A stretch of DNA of 64,000 bases from Octopus vulgaris (taxonomy: Eukaryota), in the NCBI GenBank assembly GCA_951406725.2, contig OX597830.1:52886001-52950000 (forward strand), written 5' to 3'. The first letter of the stretch is position 1, and every line of letters begins with the position of its first letter. This document shows positions 6,169 through 62,551 of the stretch, one piece after another. The notes beneath the pieces were generated by a model that was not told where the DNA came from, made no database searches, and worked only from the letters and a program-made list of their open reading frames with translations. A program made the translations under genes and the position numbers.

Positions 6169-6560
6169 CAAAATAAGAAAATGGAGAAATACATCGAAAT
6201 CAAATATCAATTACCAGATAATACTCAATCACATACTTTATTAAACCACCACATAAGAAACTATAAGGTTAAACATAATAATGCAGGGTAAAACAGTGTA
6301 CATGAAGGAGTGTACATAAAATAGTAATGTTATACAATAAGTAGAATACATATAATAGAAAATAAATATAAGTACACATAAATATAAATATAAACTATAT
6401 CTTACAGCTGTTTCGGCCATGTAGATAAGCATGTCTCATTTAACTTATATTAGCCATTTATGGTAGGTCAATATGTAGTTATAAATGAGACATTTACAGA
6501 AACATCCTAAGGCCTCTTCGGAGATTACAAATTAGATTACATACATACTTATATAGGTGT
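6169..6560 (-). mobile_element. Penelope-like pseudo-LTR fragment; same family as 38670-39045
   Basis: Reverse-complement homologue of 38670-39045; carries a hammerhead motif; abuts (TA)n. Confidence 0.75.
6399..6525 (-). ncRNA. Type I hammerhead ribozyme motif (CCGAAGA core variant, long stem II)
   Basis: atct-CCGAAGA-ggcc..(atgtctcattta/taaatgagacat)..ggcc-GAAA-C-AGCT-GUA-agat. Confidence 0.75.
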
Positions 6561-6989: not shown

Positions 6990-7079
6990 GGTACTTAAGT
7001 TGAGGCACCAGAATTTAGAATGGTATTATCCATACAATTTCAAAATAAGGTGATTAAACTCACAATAAGCCCTTATTTA

Positions 7080-7315
7080 CACCATAAATTTAAAGGTAAA
7101 AATTTCATCTGGTTTAATACCCCATACAGTTGTACATTATCCACAAACATATACAGAAAATTTATGGCTATTTTAGAAAAAAACTTCCCTACTTCCCATA
7201 GATATAATAGCATCTTTTCATGTAAGACAGTTCGAATCTCATACTCTACTCTTCCCAATATGGATACCATTATAGCTAGATTAAATAAGAAGAATATAAA
7301 ATTAGCCAGTATTGT
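7080..7315 (+). mobile_element. Penelope-like element ORF fragment (region between RT and GIY-YIG, Neptune-like)
   Basis: IWFNTPYS...TNIYRKFMAILEKNFP.SH.Y.SIF...TVRISYS..PNM matches the PLE motif IWFNPP(Y/F)S...HFP...IFN..TVKISYS..PNM. Confidence 0.8.
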
Positions 7316-7316
7316 C

Positions 7317-7356
<40 letters not shown>

Positions 7357-7759
7357 GTCAAGACGATTCGATTGTAAGATATTTTATTTGTTGAACGATA
7401 TTTCAACAGTACGTCTGTCTTTGTCAAGTTCAAAATGAGAAGTAATAAAAATTCAAAATTACAGAAATTTAAGCATAAAGTATGAACGAGAGCAAACAGC
7501 ATCTACACGCTGATGGAATGTCATCTTCAGTTTTTAAGTTACAATTTTATAACAGGCGAAAAGATAAAGACAGAAAAAAACAGAAAAAAGATGACAGAAA
7601 AAAAGGAAAGAAAAAGAGAGAAAGAAGAATATTTAATCAAACAGTTTTGTATAAATTTGATGATATTCGCCTGTCATTCATTCCTAGAGGGCGTGACGTT
7701 AATAACCTGCAAACATATTTCTCCTCATATATTCTGAGAACTGAAAGTGAAGCAGATTC

Positions 7760-14788: not shown

Positions 14789-14914
14789 TAAATTAGAGAT
14801 AAAACCACTATTAGGCAAATCATACAATGAAAAACTTAAGCCAATACATAAGATTATTTAATTTATATTATTTAAATATATAACAAAATTATTTAAAAAA
14901 TATAATTAATATAA

Positions 14915-14978
14915 CACTACGATCGTTTCATGGCTGTTAATTTCTTTAAATTTTCGAGTTACAGTCATTCATCAGGTG
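14915..14978 (-). ncRNA. Minimal type I hammerhead ribozyme (canonical core)
   Basis: cac-CUGAUGA-atgactgt..acagccat-GAAA-C-GAUC-GUA-gtg. Confidence 0.8.
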
Positions 14979-15026
14979 GTTTAAATATTTAATTGATTAA
15001 ACCATCGCCAAGTTAAATATTTAAAC

Positions 15027-15090
15027 CACCTGATGAATGACTGTAACTCGCAAATTTAAAGAAATTAACAGCCATGAAACGATCATAGTG
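15027..15090 (+). ncRNA. Mirror-arm hammerhead copy (cleavage triplet GUA changed to AUA)
   Basis: cac-CUGAUGA-stemII-GAAA-C-GAUC-AUA-gtg. Confidence 0.7.
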
Positions 15091-15302
15091 TTATATTAAT
15101 TATATTTTTTTAATAATTTTGTTATATATTTAAATAATATAAATTAAATAATCTTATGTATTGGCTTAAGTTTTTCATTGTATGATTTGCCTAATAGTGG
15201 TTTTATTCTAATTTAATATAATATAATATTTTACTATAAAATTGGATTCAATCCTAAATCTGATTTTTCCCTGTAAGTTTGGATTTATTCCCTAATATTT
15301 AT

Positions 15303-15756: not shown

Positions 15757-16390
15757 AGTGAAAATCAAATCAAATCAAATCAGATATCAGAAAGCAGAAC
15801 CAAAATCGAAGTCGATCAACATCAATGGAAATTGCAGCTGTGATACCAGTGCCGGTGACAAGTAAGCGAACCATCCGATTGTGACCGTTGCCAGCGCCGC
15901 CCCGACTGGCCTCCGTGGCGGTGGCACGTAAAAAGCACCATCCGTTCGTGGCTGTTGCCAGCCTCGCCTGGCCCCCGTTCCGGTGGCACGTAAAAAGCAC
16001 CATCCGTTCGTGGCTGTTGCCAGCCTCGCCTGGCCCCCGTTCCGGTGGCACGTAAAAAGCACCTTCCGATCGTGGCTGTTGCCAGCCTTGCCTGGCCCCC
16101 GTGCCGGTGGCACATAAAAAGCACCATCCGTCCATGGCCGTTTGCCAGCCCCGTCTGGCACTCGATCCGTCCGTGGCCGTTTGGCAGCCCCATCTGGCAC
16201 CTGTGCGGGTGGCACGTAAAAAGCATCCACTACACTCACGGAGTAGTTGGTGTTAGGAAGGGCATCCAGCCATAGAAACACTGCCAGATCAGACTGGGCC
16301 TGATGTAGCCTTCTGGCTTCCCAGACCTCAGTTGAACCGTCCAACCCATGCTAGCATGGAAAGCGGACGCTAAATGATGATGATGATGAT
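15757..16390 (+). mobile_element. RTE LINE 3' UTR with ~46-bp GC-rich tandem repeats and (GAT)n tail
   Basis: Units of gtggcacgtaaaaagcaccatccg..gtggc.gttgccagcc; homologous to the 3' UTR of RTE 28605-30330. Confidence 0.85.
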
Positions 16391-25584: not shown

Positions 25585-25862
25585 TAACTGGCAGAGAAAC
25601 TACATGGAGGAACACACTAGACAGGATTTGTGGATTACAACTGGTTGCTTGGGTAATGACTTATGTATCATAATGTTGTCACGATTCACTAGAGGTATAC
25701 ATCAACAACAATAAGCTATGCAATAACTGGCAGAGAAACTACATGGAGGAACACACTAGACAGGATCTGTGGATTACAACTGGTTGCTTGGTTAATGACT
25801 TATGTGTCATAATGTTGTCACGATTCACTAGAGGTATACATCAACAACAATAAGCTATGCAA
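25585..25862. repeat. Tandem duplication, 2 x 139 bp
   Basis: Units start at 25585 and 25724 and are nearly identical. Confidence 0.95.
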
Positions 25863-31313: not shown

Positions 31314-32920
31314 TAGTTTTATTTTTATATCGTGCTTTCACTTCACTACCAAGTGCAGCTCTGTGTGCCTTGGGTATGTGCTGTAGTTTGTTGTAATGCT
31401 CTTATGGTTGCTGTATTGAAAGTGTTTTGCGTAGAATGTGTGCAGTGCCCAGTAGTGCAATTTTCTGTATGTTATATATATTTGTAAGTCCTGGTGTTTT
31501 TGTTATGTATTTGTCTGAATATTTTTTTATCATACCTAATGCGCCTAGTATGATAGGAATTGTTTCTGTTTTTAGATTCCATATTCTAGTTACCTCTATT
31601 TCCAGGTCTTTGTATTTTGAAAGTTTCTCCATTTCTTTTAGAGACACGTTGTCATCTGCTGGTATTGATACAGCAATTAGAAAGCATTTTTTTTCTTCAT
31701 GATCTCTGACAACTAAATCTGGTCTGTTGACCTTAATTTCTCTATCTGTGTGTATTGGCACATCCCAAAGTATGGTTGCTTTCTTGTTTTCTGTGACCTT
31801 TTCTGGCATGTGCCTATACCATTTTTTATCTGTTGTTATTCCATAATATTGGCATAGCTTCCAGTGTATGTAGGTCCCAACTCTGTTGTGTCTGTGAGTA
31901 TGTTCCTTCTTAGCCAGGACTGGGCAGCCAGAGATAATATGATTTATTGTTTCTTGTCCATCTCCACATATTCTGCAATTACTCGTTATGCTTCTTTTCA
32001 TTATATGCTTTTGGTAATTTCTGGTGGGGAGGCTTTGGTCTTGTGCTGCAATTAAAAATCCCTCTGTCTCTGCTTTGAGTCCTGAGCTTCTCAACCATTG
32101 CTGGGATTTTTCTCTGTCTATTTCTTTTGCATTTAGTTTAGTCCAATATTTGCCATGAAGGGGCTTTTCTCGCCATCGTTTTAGTTTTGATTTCATTTGC
32201 TTTATAGCTTTTGTTGTGTTTTCTCCTCCTCCTCCTCCTCCTTCTTCTTCTTCTTCTTCTTCCCCCTCCTCCTTCTCTTCTTCTTCCTCCTCCTCGTCTT
32301 CTTCTTCTTCTTCTTCTTCTTCCTCCTCCTCCTCCTCCTCGTTTTCCTCTTCTGCTTCCTCCTCCTCCTCCTCGTCTTCCTCTTCTTCTTACTCCTCCTC
32401 CTCGTCTTCCTCTTCTTCTTACTCCTCCTCCTCCTCCTCCTCCTCGTCTTCTTCTTCTTCTTCTTCTTCCTCCTCCTCCTCCTCCTCCTCGTCTTCTTCT
32501 TCTTCCCCCTCCCCCTTCTCCTCTTCTTGTTCTTCCTCCCCCTCCCCCTCCCCTTCTTCTTCTTCTTCTTCTTCTTCTTCTTCTTCTTCTTCTTCATATT
32601 TGTTAGGTAGTATTTCTTGTTTGTATTTGTCAGCTTCCTTAAATACTGAGAACAGTTTTTTGTTTTGCTCGTGTTTTGCGGCTATTTGTATCAGTTTTCC
32701 TTGCTTCTGAAGTAGGTATTTTTGCAGTCCTATGGTGGTTATTTTATAATAGCTTTCCAGCTGCATAAGGCCTCTACCACCTTCTATACGTTGTATATAT
32801 AGCCTTTCTATGTCAGATTTTGGGTGGTGCATCCTAGAAACTGTCATTATTTTTTTTGTTTTCCTATCTATTTTGGTTGGTTCTTTCAGTGACCAGTTAA
32901 GGATATCGTAGCTGTAACTT
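31310..32920 (-). mobile_element. R4/Dong-type LINE 3' portion (CCHC knuckle + restriction-like endonuclease) in (TAA)n
   Basis: RLYI.R.EGGRGL, AAQDQ, CRIC...ETINHIISGC, RHN, RPD, K..KY.DL, LGALG; (TTA)n on both flanks. Confidence 0.92.
32221..32595. repeat. (CTT/CCT)n trinucleotide expansion inside the LINE ORF
   Basis: Direct inspection. Confidence 0.95.
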
Positions 32921-37954: not shown

Positions 37955-38222
37955 ATGGCTGCCCCCTTGTTATTGTGTATGGCCATTGCACGAAGCTTAA
38001 CTGTTACTGGTGCTGTGATGGAATGTAACTTTTTAGCCCAGCTAAAGATCTACAATGTCTTGTACAGAATTGGCAGCTAAAACCTTTACTGGCAATAGCC
38101 GGCTGTAGTTGTAACTGGGCTTCATGTACCTTTGCATGTCGTTTAAGTCCTCCTGCCGAATTACACTCTCTTCCACATGCCCAACAGATATGATTAGTAT
38201 GGTGTGTTACACCACCACCAGT

Positions 38223-38225
<3 letters not shown>
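37955..38225 (-). mobile_element. LINE 3' end with two C2H2-like zinc fingers (probably RTE-type)
   Basis: CWACGRECNSAGGLKRHAKVH and CQFCTRHCRSLAGLKSY; no splice signals; truncated at (TA)n. Confidence 0.55.
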
Positions 38226-38288
<63 letters not shown>

Positions 38289-38525
38289 AGGATAAAATTC
38301 TTTTCGAAAAAAATATTTTCTCGAAAAAAATTTTATCAATGGCCAGCATATTAAAAAATACCTTTGACGGTTAAATTTATAAACAATTCATAAATGAGGG
38401 CAAAGGAAAAGAATTCTAATGTAAAAAATTGGACACATTGTCCATTAACCATATAATTTTTTCACAATACGCACACTACTCGAAAAAAGGTTGACAGAAA
38501 TTTCTAAAAAATTCCATTATTACCA

Positions 38526-38578
38526 TATCGGACCGATTTCAGAGTTAGCTACTAAGAGCCCTCTCTTCGTCAGTGATA
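38526..38578 (-). ncRNA. Hammerhead motif, slightly decayed
   Basis: tatca-CUGACGA-agag...ctct-GAAA-UCG-GUC-cgata. Confidence 0.6.
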
Positions 38579-38669: not shown

Positions 38670-39045
38670 ATACCCCTCCGAAGAGGCCTTATGATTTTTT
38701 GTAAATGTCTCATTTATATCTATATATTGACCAACCATAAAGGGCTAATATTGGTAAAATGAGACATACTTATCTACATGGCCGAAACAGCTGTAAGATG
38801 TAATCTATACTTATATTTATATTTACTTATATTTATATTCTCTTTTATATATATTCTACTTATTATACAACATTACTCGTTTATGTACAATTTTTTATGT
38901 ACATTCCTTTATGTACACTGATTTGTTCTGCTTTTTATATTTAACCCTATAGTCTCTTATGTGGTGGTTTAATAAAGTATGTGATTGAGTATTATCTGGT
39001 AATTGATATTTGATTTAGATGTATTTCTCCATTTTCTTATCTTGT
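38670..39045 (+). mobile_element. Penelope-like pLTR fragment (family of 6169-6560)
   Basis: Homologous to 6169-6560 in the opposite orientation; ends at (TA)n. Confidence 0.75.
38674..38799 (+). ncRNA. Hammerhead motif (CCGAAGA variant)
   Basis: ct-CCGAAGA-ggcc...ggcc-GAAA-C-AGCU-GUA-ag; stem I reduced. Confidence 0.65.
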
Positions 39046-41489: not shown

Positions 41490-41494
<5 letters not shown>

Positions 41495-42062
41495 CGTTTG
41501 CCAGCTCTGTCTGGCCCCCGTATCAGTGACACGTAAAAGCACCATCCGTTCGTGGCCGTTTGCCAACCCTGTCTGGCCCCCGTGTCAGTGGCATGTAAAA
41601 GCACCATCCGTTCGTGTCCGTTGCCAGCCTCGCCTGGCCCCCATGCCGGTGACACGTAAAAGCACCATCCGTTTTGTGGCTGTTTGCCAGCTCTGTCTGG
41701 CCCTCGTGTTGGTGGCACGTAAAAGCACCATCCGTTCGTGTCCGTTGCCAGCCTCGCCTGGCCCCCGTGCCGGTGACACGTAAGAGCACCATCCGTTTCG
41801 TGGCCGTTTGCCAGCTCTGTCTGGCCCCCGTGTTGGTGGCACGTAAAAGCACCATCCGTTCGTGGCCGTTTGCCAGCTCTGTCTGGCACCTGTGCGGGTG
41901 GCACGTAAAAAGCACCCACTACACTCACGGAGTGGTTGGCGTTAGGAAGGGCATCCAGCCGTAGAAACACTGCCAGATCTGACTGGGCCTGATGAAGCCT
42001 TCTGGCTTCACAGACCCCAGTTGAACCGTCCAACCCATGCTAGCATGGAGAACGGACGCTAA

Positions 42063-46186: not shown

Positions 46187-46192
<6 letters not shown>

Positions 46193-46527
46193 ATACATGT
46201 GTTCATATTTTGAGTTCTGTTTTTCCTGTCTATATCACCATGTGTGTGTGTGAGTTAACTTGGAGATTATAACAACCGTCTAAAAGATACTTGTATCCAA
46301 TTAATCCACTGGTGGAGATCAATTGTTATTCATCAATTCTATCTCCATTCTCTGCTTTCATTATATATATATATATATTGAAGTTCATGAATTCATCTGA
46401 CGAAAACGTAATGTTTTCATTAATCAATTAAAGGCGTCGTTAGAAACGGCCGTAATGTTTTCATTAATCAATTAAAGGCGTCGTTAGAAACGGCCGTAAT
46501 GGATTGACTTCCGTACCACTAGTGTTA

Positions 46528-46532
<5 letters not shown>
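46187..46532 (+). mobile_element. Hammerhead-bearing element between (TA)n tracts
   Basis: Unique AT-rich segment bounded and interrupted by (TA)n. Confidence 0.55.
46391..46504 (+). ncRNA. Type I hammerhead with intact core and duplicated 3' half
   Basis: attcat-CUGACGA-a-aacg...cgtt-a-GAAA-C-GGCC-GUA-atg(gat); a 44-bp tandem duplication gives two GAAACGGCCGUA boxes. Confidence 0.8.
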
Positions 46533-46570
<38 letters not shown>

Positions 46571-46725
46571 GCACGTGTAGTATTATAGATCAATCTCAAC
46601 CGATTTTACCCATGGTAATCGTCAGAAGGGCTGGCGTGGCAATTCACTGACTATGTATGTATGGATGGATGGATGGATGGATGTTTACTCGAAGTGATGC
46701 TTCTCTGTATGTCTCTCTCTCTCTC

Positions 46726-47165: not shown

Positions 47166-47234
<69 letters not shown>

Positions 47235-47305
47235 AGTGGCTGTGTCATAAGTAGCTTGTTTACCAACTCCATGGTTCCGGGTTCAGTCCCATTGTGTGGC
47301 CTGTC

Positions 47306-47339
<34 letters not shown>

Positions 47340-47413
47340 GACAGGCCACACAATGGGACTGAACCCGGAACCATGGAGTTGGTAAACAAGCTACTTATGA
47401 CACAGCCACTCCA
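47000..47413 (-). mobile_element. SINE family A copy with an inverted duplication of its head
   Basis: 3' half at 47000-47168; head present twice as a perfect palindrome 47232-47413. Confidence 0.85.
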
Positions 47414-47672
47414 TATATATATAGAGAGAGAGAAAGGGGGAGATTGACATACTTAAAAAGATAACATGCCAAGATAATACATATACACCTATAAGCAGAC
47501 ATTATTAAATTAACAGAAAGTTTTTTGCTTAAAATTTTTTTTTTATAAGTTGGCATGTGACTTAAAAACAAGTTGTCCGAAGTTCAAACCCTGTATCCAC
47601 CTTTATTCTTTCTGTACTAGCTGTTTGTTGTTTTACTATTTCGAGTGGAGAAAAAAGAATTACTACATACCA

Positions 47673-47718
<46 letters not shown>

Positions 47719-48230
47719 TTTTTTCTCCACTCGAAATACTAGGCTTACAAAGAATAAGTCCTGGGTCGATTTCTTCGACTAAAGGCGGTGCTCCAGCATT
47801 TTTTTTACATCACAATTCTTTTTCAAAATTGTTAAGTTTCATTTTGTGGCTATATGTGATGTGTGTCAGTGTGTACTTGTGCGACTTATATTAGATTCCT
47901 ATATAATCGTAGGCATGTACACCATTTGAAAGATATCTGTAGAAAATTTCATTTAAAAATATCTGTTTTTCTGGAAGTTATGAGGAAATAAAGTCGGCAG
48001 GGGTGCACACATGTGTAGGTATGCCTATATATAAATACACACACACACACTAATGTATACACAATATTACATATATACTTACAATACAACAAAACATGAC
48101 ATACATAATATATCTAACAGGCTGCAAACATAGCATGACGTATCTACAAACATATGCATGTACATAGACGTACGTACATACGTTCGCACATATATCTACA
48201 TACATTTACATACAAACACTTATTTACATA

Positions 48231-53160: not shown

Positions 53161-54658
53161 CAGGCATACCTCGGCTTAAGTCATTTCGATTTAAGTCATT
53201 TTCGATTATACGTTGGTTTCAAAAATGATATATGGAAAAATAAAAATTAAGTTAAACCATTTTACTCGACTTTATGTCTGTCTGCCACAAATATTGGAAT
53301 CGTAAAATCACTAGAAAACCGATAAAAGCACATAAAATCATGTTACTGTACAATAAATAAGAATAAAAGCATATAAAATTATATTAAAATGCGTACAGTA
53401 AATGTTAAGATACACACCATAAAGTAGTGTAGCTTAGTGAATGAAATCATGAAATCAGCTGTGTTGTCTTATTTATCGGTCTTTCGGAGCTCATATTGCT
53501 CTGTAGTTCCAATATCTACTGTTAGGCGTTGTTGTCACTCATGATTCCTGCAATTGTTTTGAATTCATATTTGTTTACGTCTGTTTATCAGGTACTTTCT
53601 CATTCTCATTCATTTGTGACTTTATTTTTTACCCCCATGGCTCCTCAGAAAATTCATAGTGAAAGTACTAAGCATCATGCTATAATGCTGGAAGATAAAC
53701 TGGTCATGAGAAAACACCATGAAAAAGGTGAAAAAGTGGTAGCAATTGCACGATCTTTTGGATTGAGTCAGACAACTGTATCGACGATTGGACATAATAA
53801 GGCCAAGATTTTAGGACATATCAAATCTGATACTCCAGAGATGAAGAACACTGTCATCAATAAGAAAAGGGGCAAAATCTTTGAAGAAATGGAAAGTCTT
53901 CTTTCTCTTTGGGGTTGTTAGGTTGAATCGTCAACGTGCTACTATTAGTCAAAAAAATCATTCAAGAGAAAGTGTTGTCTTTGTTTGAGGACCTGAAGAA
54001 AAAATATCCAGATGAGAAAGATGTAGAGTTCAAGGCAAGTCAAGGATGGTTCATGAGATTTAAGGAGCGAAGAAGTTATCACTCCATTAAGAAGCAAGGT
54101 GAAAGTGCATCAGCTGACAAACAAGCAGCAGCAGAATTTCTTAATGTATTAAAGAAAACCATCGAAGAAAACGGTTCTCTTCCCAAACAGATTTTTAATG
54201 TAGACGAAACTGGATTGCATTGGAAAAAATTGCCAGAACGTTCATTCATTTCCAAGGAAGAGAAAACTATTCCGGACTACATTATGTTGGGAAGTAATTG
54301 TGCAGGAGATTTTAAGTTAAAGCCATTGCTTGTGTATCATGCACACAGACCCCGTGCTATGAAGAACATACCCAAGGCATCTCTCCATGTTATATGGATG
54401 GCAAATTCAAAAGCATGAGTTACTGTTGTTGTTTTTGAAGATTGATTCTTCAATCATTTTATCCCAGCAGCAGAGAAGTACTATAAGGTGAAGGGGATTC
54501 TTTTTAAGGTTTTACTTATCTTAGATAATGCTCCTGGCTACCCTCAAAACATCGTAGATTTTGACCCCAATGTTACTGTCATATACCTCCCTCCAAATAC
54601 CACGTCTCTTCTGCAGCCAATGGATCAGGGAATAATTGCTATATTCAAGTGTTACTAT
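53161..54658 (+). mobile_element. Tigger/pogo DNA transposon, 3'-truncated, pseudogenised
   Basis: TA|CAGG..ACCTCG left end; HTH (IARSFGLSQTTVSTI), FKASQGWF.RFK, IFNVDETGL.WK, LILDNAPG, LPPNTTSLLQPMDQGII. Confidence 0.93.
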
Positions 54659-55910
54659 ATATATATACAGATATAGTGATCATTACACTATAGGCAGCAT
54701 GAGAGGTGTCCATCCTCACTTACAGTTGTTATATAGATGTGGCTATGTTCATTTGTGTGCATGACTGAGTGAATATATGTGTGAGAGCATGCTGTGTGTG
54801 TGTGTGAGTAAAGGTCTATGTGTGAGAGCATGCTGTGTGTGTGTGTGTGAGTAAAGGTCTATGCGTGAGTACATGTTTTGTGTATGTGTGTGTGCGTGCG
54901 CATAGGCTGTCATGGGAAAATGTTTTCAAACTGGAACAGAAGACATTCTGAAATTTTATCTGAAAACTGAGAAGACATTTTATATATTTGTTACGTTTCA
55001 ATCACCCAGGCTGTTGGTGTAAAGTATAAATGTATGGGGTGGGATAGAGCATATGTGGTGTATGTTATAGTATGGCAAAGTGTATGGTATGATGTATGGT
55101 TATGTTATATATATAGTGCATGGTATGGCGTGATGTGGTATGGTGCATTATAAGCTTGCAAGTGTGGGACTGCAACCTGCATGTTGTTGTTGTTAATGCT
55201 GGAGCAGATTTCCTAATGAAGTTGCAGTTAGACCATCGACCGGCTAATACTGGTTTTTAAAAACAAATTTGCTATCTTATTATTCTGGGCTCAAATCTGA
55301 TGAAAGCGCCAAATTTGTCATTTCATTTCTTCTCACTCAGATTGAAGAGATATCTAACAGCAATTACATTAAATAAGATAACAAGTTGTATGTACTTAGT
55401 AAAGGATAAACTGCAATTAGTTAAGAGTACCCAGCAGGTAATTCAGGGTACCCTGTAGTTAGTTAAGTGTACCCACTAGTTTGTTAAATGTACCCAATAA
55501 TTAGTTAAGGGTTAATGGTACCCAGTAGTTTAAGAGTACCTTATGGTTAGTTAAAGGTACCCAGTAGTCAGTTAAGGGTACCTAGTAGTTACTTAAGGGC
55601 TGGGCTCATGCCAGAGTATTCAGTGCCCTAGGCCAGCCCTACAATGTGCACCCCCTTCTCTCAATGCAACATTGTGTGTCCCTTCTCCAATATTTTTCTA
55701 CAACTCCCTCCAGCCATCTCCTTTTTGTACGCTTTTGCATCAACATATGTATCAATGAGTAAATTTCTGGAAAAATTTGAAATGTTACATGGAAATCATG
55801 TGACCACTCATGACATTACACAACCTTTGTTTTCTCAACCTACTCATCCATGCCCTCTATTTCAGAAATGACTGATCTACACTCTTTTTTACTAAGTTTT
55901 CATGCTTTAA

Positions 55911-62083: not shown

Positions 62084-62142
<59 letters not shown>

Positions 62143-62198
62143 GCATAATAAGGTAAAAACCAAGGCTGTATAGATATTAGAGCATTTATAGATAGAAG

Positions 62199-62250
62199 GT
62201 CTTACAGATGTTTCTAGGATATTAATTAATAATATCCCTTAATTGGAGAC
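62199..62250 (-). ncRNA. Mirror-arm hammerhead, decayed core
   Basis: gtct-CCAATTA-ag-ggatatt..aatatcc-ta-GAAA-C-AUCU-GUA-agac. Confidence 0.55.
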
Positions 62251-62294
62251 AGTGTGAGAGGAAACTAACTATGACTTAATTTTTCCTTCACACT

Positions 62295-62336
62295 GTTTCC
62301 GATGAAGAATTAATATCCTAGAAACAGCTGTAAGAC
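62295..62336 (+). ncRNA. Hammerhead motif (CCGAUGA variant), stem II partly deleted
   Basis: gttt-CCGAUGA-...-GAAA-C-AGCU-GUA-agac. Confidence 0.65.
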
Positions 62337-62551
62337 CTTCTATCTATAAATGCTCTTATATCTATACAGCCTTGGTTTTTTTATCTTATTACGCAAAAAA
62401 CTTTTATATACACACGCTGACATAGAACCAACGTTGAACCCTTTATTCGCAATATTACCGAATCTGGAACTTAACTTACGGTCTTATTCAGCATTACCTG
62501 ACACCTTTGGGTCTCAATGACACCATTATCTCTTATAACCTCAACTTCTTG

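Follow-up and report, generated by a model that had tools for sequence, protein, structure and literature searches.

Closest described systems

The accessible text of PMC4209133 describes minimal hammerhead ribozymes in the pLTRs of metazoan Penelope-like elements (PLEs), mostly as single motifs with a palindromic helix III, and reports that intact minimal hammerheads showed no cleavage as single motifs and cleaved little when dimeric or when given an engineered helix III. Insertions of PLEs are described, in the accessible part of PMC8557442, as biased toward (TA)n, with truncated inverted copies. The locus analysed here lies near 46.4 kb in a 64,000-nt stretch of octopus DNA (the window). 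It resembles the ribozymes of PMC4209133 in its type I order, in having CUGANGA plus an extra nucleotide and GAAA-palindrome-UH, in a helix III that is too short for a monomer, in the long helix II of its family, and in occurring mostly as solo truncated copies with many families per genome. It differs from the systems treated in that text in that its family is without the G10.1-C11.1 pair (A-U or A.A is found instead) and has a helix II far longer than that of the published descriptor; in this copy, moreover, helix II is broken and the 3' half occurs twice. A search of mostly open-access literature found no description of such hammerheads in octopus or cephalopods, and none of a hammerhead combining a partial tandem duplication (a partial dimer) with self-cleavage.

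Double hammerheads (ASBVd, newt satellite 2 and axolotl retrozymes; PMC6466107, PMC7229834, accessible text) likewise form helix III from two palindromic halves carried by the same RNA, but they consist of two complete tandem hammerheads with two cleavage sites, whereas the locus has a single core with one usable site, and its period is 44 nt. Identity with a double hammerhead of the ASBVd or newt type was rejected because of the single core, although a helix III paired in cis is predicted here as well. Non-LTR retrozymes (accessible parts of PMC7229834 and bioRxiv 10.64898/2026.07.22.740005) share with the locus a short tandem repeat carrying hammerhead sequence and a proposed PLE origin; their units, however, are 150-450 bp long with a complete hammerhead in each, and retrozyme identity was rejected since the 44-bp unit is without a core. 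An engineered minimal hammerhead with a dimer-mimicking helix III (supplementary Fig. S6B of PMC4209133, according to its text) also has one core and an extended helix III, but is a laboratory construct whose helix II is intact and is reported to cleave weakly, mostly at non-physiological Mg2+. By analogy, the locus would work, if at all, like a double hammerhead cut down to one core, which is the arrangement of that engineered construct.

Anatomy of the locus

The features of the locus are collected in Table 1. The original prediction described an exact 44-bp duplication with one catalytic half and two GAAAC-GGCC-GUA boxes, and direct sequence comparison agrees with it on each point, as does TRF (2.2 copies, 100%) on the duplication. 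The period-44 match spans 51 nt (46407-46457), and the 7-mer CGTAATG occurs three times, at 46407, 46451 and 46495. Exact non-simple tandem duplications with a period of 20-400 number two in the whole 64 kb, the other one sitting within a 62-bp minisatellite. On the + strand between 42205 and 50767 there is a single CTGA.GA. GAAAC is found at 46443 and 46487, and GUA at 46452-54 and 46496-98. Stem I with box 1 is 3 bp long, as had been stated; with box 2 it measures 7 bp rather than the 6 bp given earlier, with the one G-U correctly noted (46390-96/46499-505), and in the fold it gains 6 bp beyond a 4-nt bulge (46380-85/46506-11). Helix II, which the original prediction does not mention, has just 4 bp at the locus (46405-08/46438-41), with an A.A opposition as its closing base. 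The segment ACGGCCGU is self-complementary, that is, palindromic in 15.2-16.2 and loop 3 as in the minimal hammerheads of PLEs, and the type I order (CUGANGA core, helix II, GAAA, NUH, helix I) is present.

Another complex tandem duplication in the window, of 139 bp, lies at 25585-25862 (97% identical). Arrays of the 62-bp minisatellite lie at 15899-16159 and 41491-41916, within a dispersed repeat.

Table 1. Coordinates of the features of the 46.4-kb locus within the window
Feature	Position	Strand	Basis
(TA)n tract, left edge of element, likely insertion target	46362-46378		Sequence; (TA)n bias in the accessible part of PMC8557442
Solo remnant of a dispersed repeat carrying a hammerhead; most likely the 3' pLTR terminus of a PLE truncated on its 5' side	46380-46530	+	Contig placement
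Helix I 5' strand (46390-96), 4-nt bulge (46386-89) and outer extension (46380-85)	46380-46396	+	Fold, descriptor
Sole catalytic core CUGACGA (C3-A9)	46397-46403	+	Sequence
Damaged helix II, 4 bp, A.A base; 17 nt of the family 5' arm absent after 46408	46404-46442	+	Contig loose ends, folds
Duplication unit 1, 44 bp	46407-46450	+	Self-comparison, TRF
Duplication unit 2, 44 bp, identical, followed by third microhomology copy (46495-46501)	46451-46494	+	Self-comparison, TRF
UCGUUAG, predicted 7-bp trap helix with core	46437-46443	+	Pair probabilities 0.80-0.99
Box 1, GAAAC-GGCC-GUA: G12-A15.1 and predicted 5' strand of cis helix III	46443-46454	+	Sequence, fold
Box 2, GAAAC-GGCC-GUA: predicted 3' strand of cis helix III (46490-97); sole plausible cleavage site after A46498	46487-46498	+	Sequence, fold
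Helix I 3' strand (46499-505) and extension (46506-11)	46499-46511	+	Fold, descriptor
(AT)n tract, right edge of element	46531-46561		TRF

Recognition as a hammerhead

In build the locus is a minimal hammerhead of type I, a kind already described, and it stands alone as a decayed copy. A strict minimal hammerhead descriptor, composed after the motif had been seen, picks out two cores in the window (46397+ and 6521-) and none in 100 block-wise dinucleotide shuffles; three more hammerhead-type copies in the window, chosen by eye, were missed by it. Rfam gave no hammerhead match in the window at the gathering score and none at E up to 10 in 46200-46700, and the folding z-scores of the whole region are merely -0.9 to -1.6, both of which would suit a likeness that had arisen by chance. 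Five or six further motifs of hammerhead type elsewhere in the window likewise escaped the same Rfam search. Against chance stand the empty shuffles, the sharing of core, long helix II and palindrome among the copies of the family, and the presence in the window of other families with the same build and different palindromes. We regard a chance likeness as practically negligible, the family contigs, the family fold and the shuffles having already refuted it for practical purposes.

Repeat family and probable Penelope-like affiliation

The matches listed come from 21 runs, 20 of them with a share of 0.04 that probably reflects microsatellite words, and contigs of four runs were placed on 46190-46530 at 80% likeness: X1 and, from among the 20, X17, X20 and X21. 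X17 is an RNA run; the DNA runs X1, X20 and X21 all come from one study, and X20 and X21 are one sample. The numbers of contigs placed were 505 for X1, 63 for X20 and 64 for X21, while X17 had 0 at this likeness, which is no proof of absence. More than half of the X1 contigs (302/505) are less than 90% alike to the locus, and the summed X1 depth, which is not a copy number, reaches 25,186 at 46466-77 against 404-650 in the flank at 46286-46333. From this high depth and the many divergent contigs it follows that the motif is one copy of a dispersed, divergent repeat family, whose copies are mostly solo. Family contigs carry C>T and G>A changes at three CpG sites (46482/83, 46491/92 and 46495/96).

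The element is flanked by (TA)n tracts on both sides, and family contigs also run from about 46508 via 22-27 letters into (TA)n, which fits a 5'-truncated PLE. By its build and context, the element is most likely the end (pLTR) of such a copy. With 151 PLE-like proteins as tblastn queries, no remnant of a PLE ORF came to light near 46.4 kb, and no ORF was tied to the 46.4-kb hammerhead family. A pattern scan of viral contigs yielded 0 matches; two metagenome pattern matches were rejected as chance, lying in GC-richer sequence with no CUGANGA-helix II upstream. Just upstream of the element, 46190-46229 and 46250-46290 are further dispersed-repeat fragments, with raised depth and shared variants.

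Damage to helix II and age of the duplication

Among the 18 of 210 loose-end rows listed, family contigs depart from the locus after 46408 (at least 11 in X1 and at least 3 in X20) and enter it at 46452/46453 (at least 36+12 in X1, at least 9 in X20 and at least 3 in X21). Departing and entering contigs carry identical extra letters, which shows the locus to be without 17 nt of the helix II 5' arm. When family-majority letters were folded with the missing arm as a separate strand, this two-strand model gave a helix II of 14 bp with an inner hairpin. At 46435/46479 both units have C, in place of an A found in 93-100% of family depth. At 46486, T accounts for 41-61% of family depth and most of the remainder is the A of the locus; at 46442/46486, about 34-53% of family depth is neither T nor G. 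The A at 46442/46486 is thus a common family variant and the C at 46435/46479 a rare one, and both are older than the duplication.

The G10.1-C11.1 pair is absent, being replaced by A.A at the locus and, for most of the family depth, by A-U. Membership of the PLE hammerheads is still compatible with this, since a published one also starts helix II with A-U (the Marsupenaeus row of PMC4209133, in its accessible part). The descriptor in the same source permits extra N10 and N11 on both sides of helix II, and the accessible text of PMC3088659 includes active hammerheads with a U-U base or a very short helix II. The A.A base may be tolerated, since the A at 46442/46486 is not private to the locus.

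The two units show 0/44 differences, for which the chance would be 0.10, 0.01 and 0.0008 at 5, 10 and 15% divergence, respectively. This identity, together with the C and A variants that both units share, indicates that the duplication is young and postdates the decay of the copy. A microhomology of 7 nt marks its borders; 6 of these nt belong to the hammerhead family natively, as it holds GTAATG twice, 44 nt apart. In appearance the duplication is a recent slippage event, selectively neutral, in a copy that had diverged beforehand.

Predicted fold of the two-unit RNA

The fold was modelled for 46378-46515 at 37 C with nearest-neighbour models, which contain neither Mg2+ nor tertiary contacts. 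The proposal that the two ACGGCCGU palindromes pair in cis is supported by these models: they form a helix III of 8 bp (46446-53 with 46490-97) at pair probabilities of 0.71-0.99, and helix I pairs with box 2 at 0.25-0.62. In the same ensemble UCGUUAG (46437-43) occupies the core CUGACGA at predicted pair probabilities of 0.80-0.99, and helix II has a probability of 0.00 at 10, 20 and 37 C, because the copy is without 17 nt of the helix II 5' arm. At 37 C the active secondary structure makes up about 4.5e-5 of the ensemble, some 1,000 times its share in a control with a single unit (3.5e-8). That gain bears out the logic of the original prediction, yet the fold stays rare. Cooling to 20 or 10 C lowers the share further, and the active arrangement lies 4.9 kcal/mol above the minimum (-24.7 versus -29.6). 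With 231 nt of context, helix I falls to 0.00 and the active fold to 3e-7. With its core predicted to be held by UCGUUAG, the RNA would show little or no self-cleavage, and the further claim of a self-sufficient ribozyme is not supported by these models.

Two cleavage sites had been proposed. In the predicted cis fold A46498 adjoins the core, in line with that proposal, whereas A46454 lies inside the helix III loop with no second CUGANGA adjoining; cis cleavage at A46454 was rejected for want of an adjoining core and with an active fold of 5e-10. In the monomer register on box 2 the active fold is 4e-11. The A at 46442/46486 completes the trap; with the family T in its place the trap is gone, but a different misfold dominates and the active fold reaches 1.3e-5, which suggests that the missing arm, and not that letter alone, is the main lesion.

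The probability that helix II is formed and the core free was taken as a calibration measure, none of the copies compared being of known activity. It is 6e-5 for the locus; far higher, at 0.28, 0.21 and 0.035, for the copies 6521-, 38678+ and 14975-, respectively, whose helix II is intact; 2e-7 for 62299+, in which helix II is shortened; and 0.086 and 0.012 for models of the family with T and with A, respectively.

Origin of the locus and competing explanations

We consider it likely that the locus is a decayed hammerhead copy of the PLE type with a young neutral duplication and a trapped core, that it has little or no self-cleavage, and that it is functionless. A 5'-truncated end of a hammerhead-bearing retroelement, most likely a PLE pLTR, would have inserted into a (TA)n tract and then decayed by substitutions and by the loss of 17 nt of the helix II 5' arm, a loss evident against the family contigs. 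The 3' half may afterwards have been duplicated through slippage, or through microhomology-mediated repair, involving two CGTAATG repeats that stand 44 nt from each other. In a + strand transcript, the palindromes are predicted to form a stable cis helix III and helix I to pair with box 2, and CUGACGA would pair with UCGUUAG instead of folding around helix II. The locus would be neutral, with no function. Points against this account include an energy gap behind the trap of just about 5 kcal/mol in models blind to Mg2+ and tertiary contacts, the possible tolerance of the A.A base and, against inactivity, the intact core and both intact boxes of the locus, despite the frequency of CpG changes there in family copies.

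The intact core also favours a cis-active ribozyme of neutral origin, in which the duplication rescued measurable, partner-free self-cleavage after A46498 without selection. So do the strong cis helix III, the 7+6 bp of helix I, the roughly 1,000-fold advantage over a single unit and, in the accessible text of PMC4209133, the cleavage that an engineered helix III gave for the Schistosoma minimal hammerhead. We nevertheless think this unlikely, given the occupied core, a helix II absent from the models at all three temperatures, the collapse of helix I in the longer context, the missing G10.1-C11.1 pair and the mostly non-physiological Mg2+ at which the engineered case cleaved. Little weight is likewise placed on what would be its full form, autonomous cleavage after A46498 independent of RNA concentration, by a "one-and-a-half" hammerhead that a slippage duplication had made. 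If such a variant had instead been selected or amplified, as a subfamily or a domesticated ribozyme cutting without a dimer through its duplicated half, the intact core and boxes would fit, and the family's own pair of GTAATG hexamers would let the same duplication recur. This is very improbable, however: the longest pieces on the element among those listed are 84 nt and all end or start at the unit boundary, the identity of the units leaves no history of selection, helix II is damaged, the RNA run X17 has no contig on the element, the runs listed include no RNA run of organism A, and Pfam recognised no host exon in the 158 ORFs scanned. Apart from one zinc finger, at 38007-38387, every domain that Pfam assigned in these window ORFs (8 + 150, some 240 shorter ones being left out) belongs to mobile elements.

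The perfect identity of the units could also mean that the duplication is an artefact of assembly or consensus and the true locus a single decayed unit. The junction is spanned by none of the 24 pieces listed (of 667), and a perfect 101-nt fold-back 720 bp away (47222-47423) is a mild warning about the assembly. A true duplication, by our reasoning, would fragment short-word contigs below the lengths listed. Among the matches listed, which cover about 80% of X1, there is no 44-nt skip or joint in X1, a weak counter-argument, and over 147 nt of the left flank X1 record 1 agrees with the locus, with 0 differences. That rearrangements of this sort are real in this genome is shown by diverged fold-backs at other places in the window. 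An artefact is accordingly an explanation that we doubt. The 47222-47423 fold-back is centred on (TA)n and is the sole perfect complex one in the window, from either a recent inversion or an artefact; a diverged fold-back (83%) lies at 47634-47741. Returning to the decayed, trapped copy as the preferred reading, the folding models make the locus most likely a curiosity, a one-off accident rather than a working ribozyme.

Other hammerheads and mobile elements in the window

The window is repeat-rich animal DNA with microsatellites, fragments of LINE reverse transcriptase and endonuclease, and a Tc5/pogo-type transposase. Two copies of another minimal hammerhead family, at 6400-6521 (-) and 38678-38800 (+), have a CCGAAGA core and GAAAC-AGCT-GTA; their helix II of about 105 nt is closed by GGCC/GGCC and folds well. 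An ORF remnant at 6999-7391 (+), with 1,861 relatives (E up to 0.001), lies on the strand opposite to that of the 6521- hammerhead and at a distance of about 480 bp. Its long relatives contain a reverse transcriptase with YRDD, followed by a Cys linker and an endonuclease-like end, and one of 17 relatives has a weak Pfam GIY-YIG match (E 1.8e-4). We take them to be Penelope-type RT-endonucleases. A degenerate hammerhead-like sequence at 38573 (-), CTGACGA ... GAAAT-CGGTCCG-ATA with a possible AGAG/CTCT helix II, is 100 bp from the 38678 copy.

A third family forms a head-to-head inverted pair at 14800-15150, with CTGATGA ... GAAAC-GATC-GTA at 14975- and a partner at 15030+ that has ATA for GTA; such a pair is typical of inverted truncated PLE ends. 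A fourth is an inverted pair at 62130-62400, with its core at 62299+, GAAAC-AGCT-GTA at 62321 and the partner at 62214-. Both 62299+ and 62214- have an extra A before GAAAC, giving an A.A helix II base as at the 46.4-kb locus, and this base is possibly a recurring tolerated variant in this genome. Other mobile elements are a non-LTR retrotransposon ORF at 31402-32919 (-) (zf-RVT, E 1.3e-5), split by a long repeat of the (GAA/GAG) type, and a broken pogo/Tigger-type transposase at 53526-54673 (+) (CENP-B_N, HTH_Tnp_Tc5 and DDE_1).

Significance

In its most likely state the locus matters little, being one of very many dead retroelement hammerheads, distinguished by a private duplication. Should cleavage in cis take place, the locus would provide a test, set up by nature, of the 1988/2014 dimer model, and an example of how a single mutation can render a retroelement ribozyme autonomous and capable of cutting a host transcript. 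The same step could then recur in copies with an intact helix II, the GTAATG hexamer of the family being doubled 44 nt apart, and would offer a general one-step route from a dimer-dependent to an autonomous ribozyme. The more useful lead is the family itself, with its long helix II and its A-U or A.A base.
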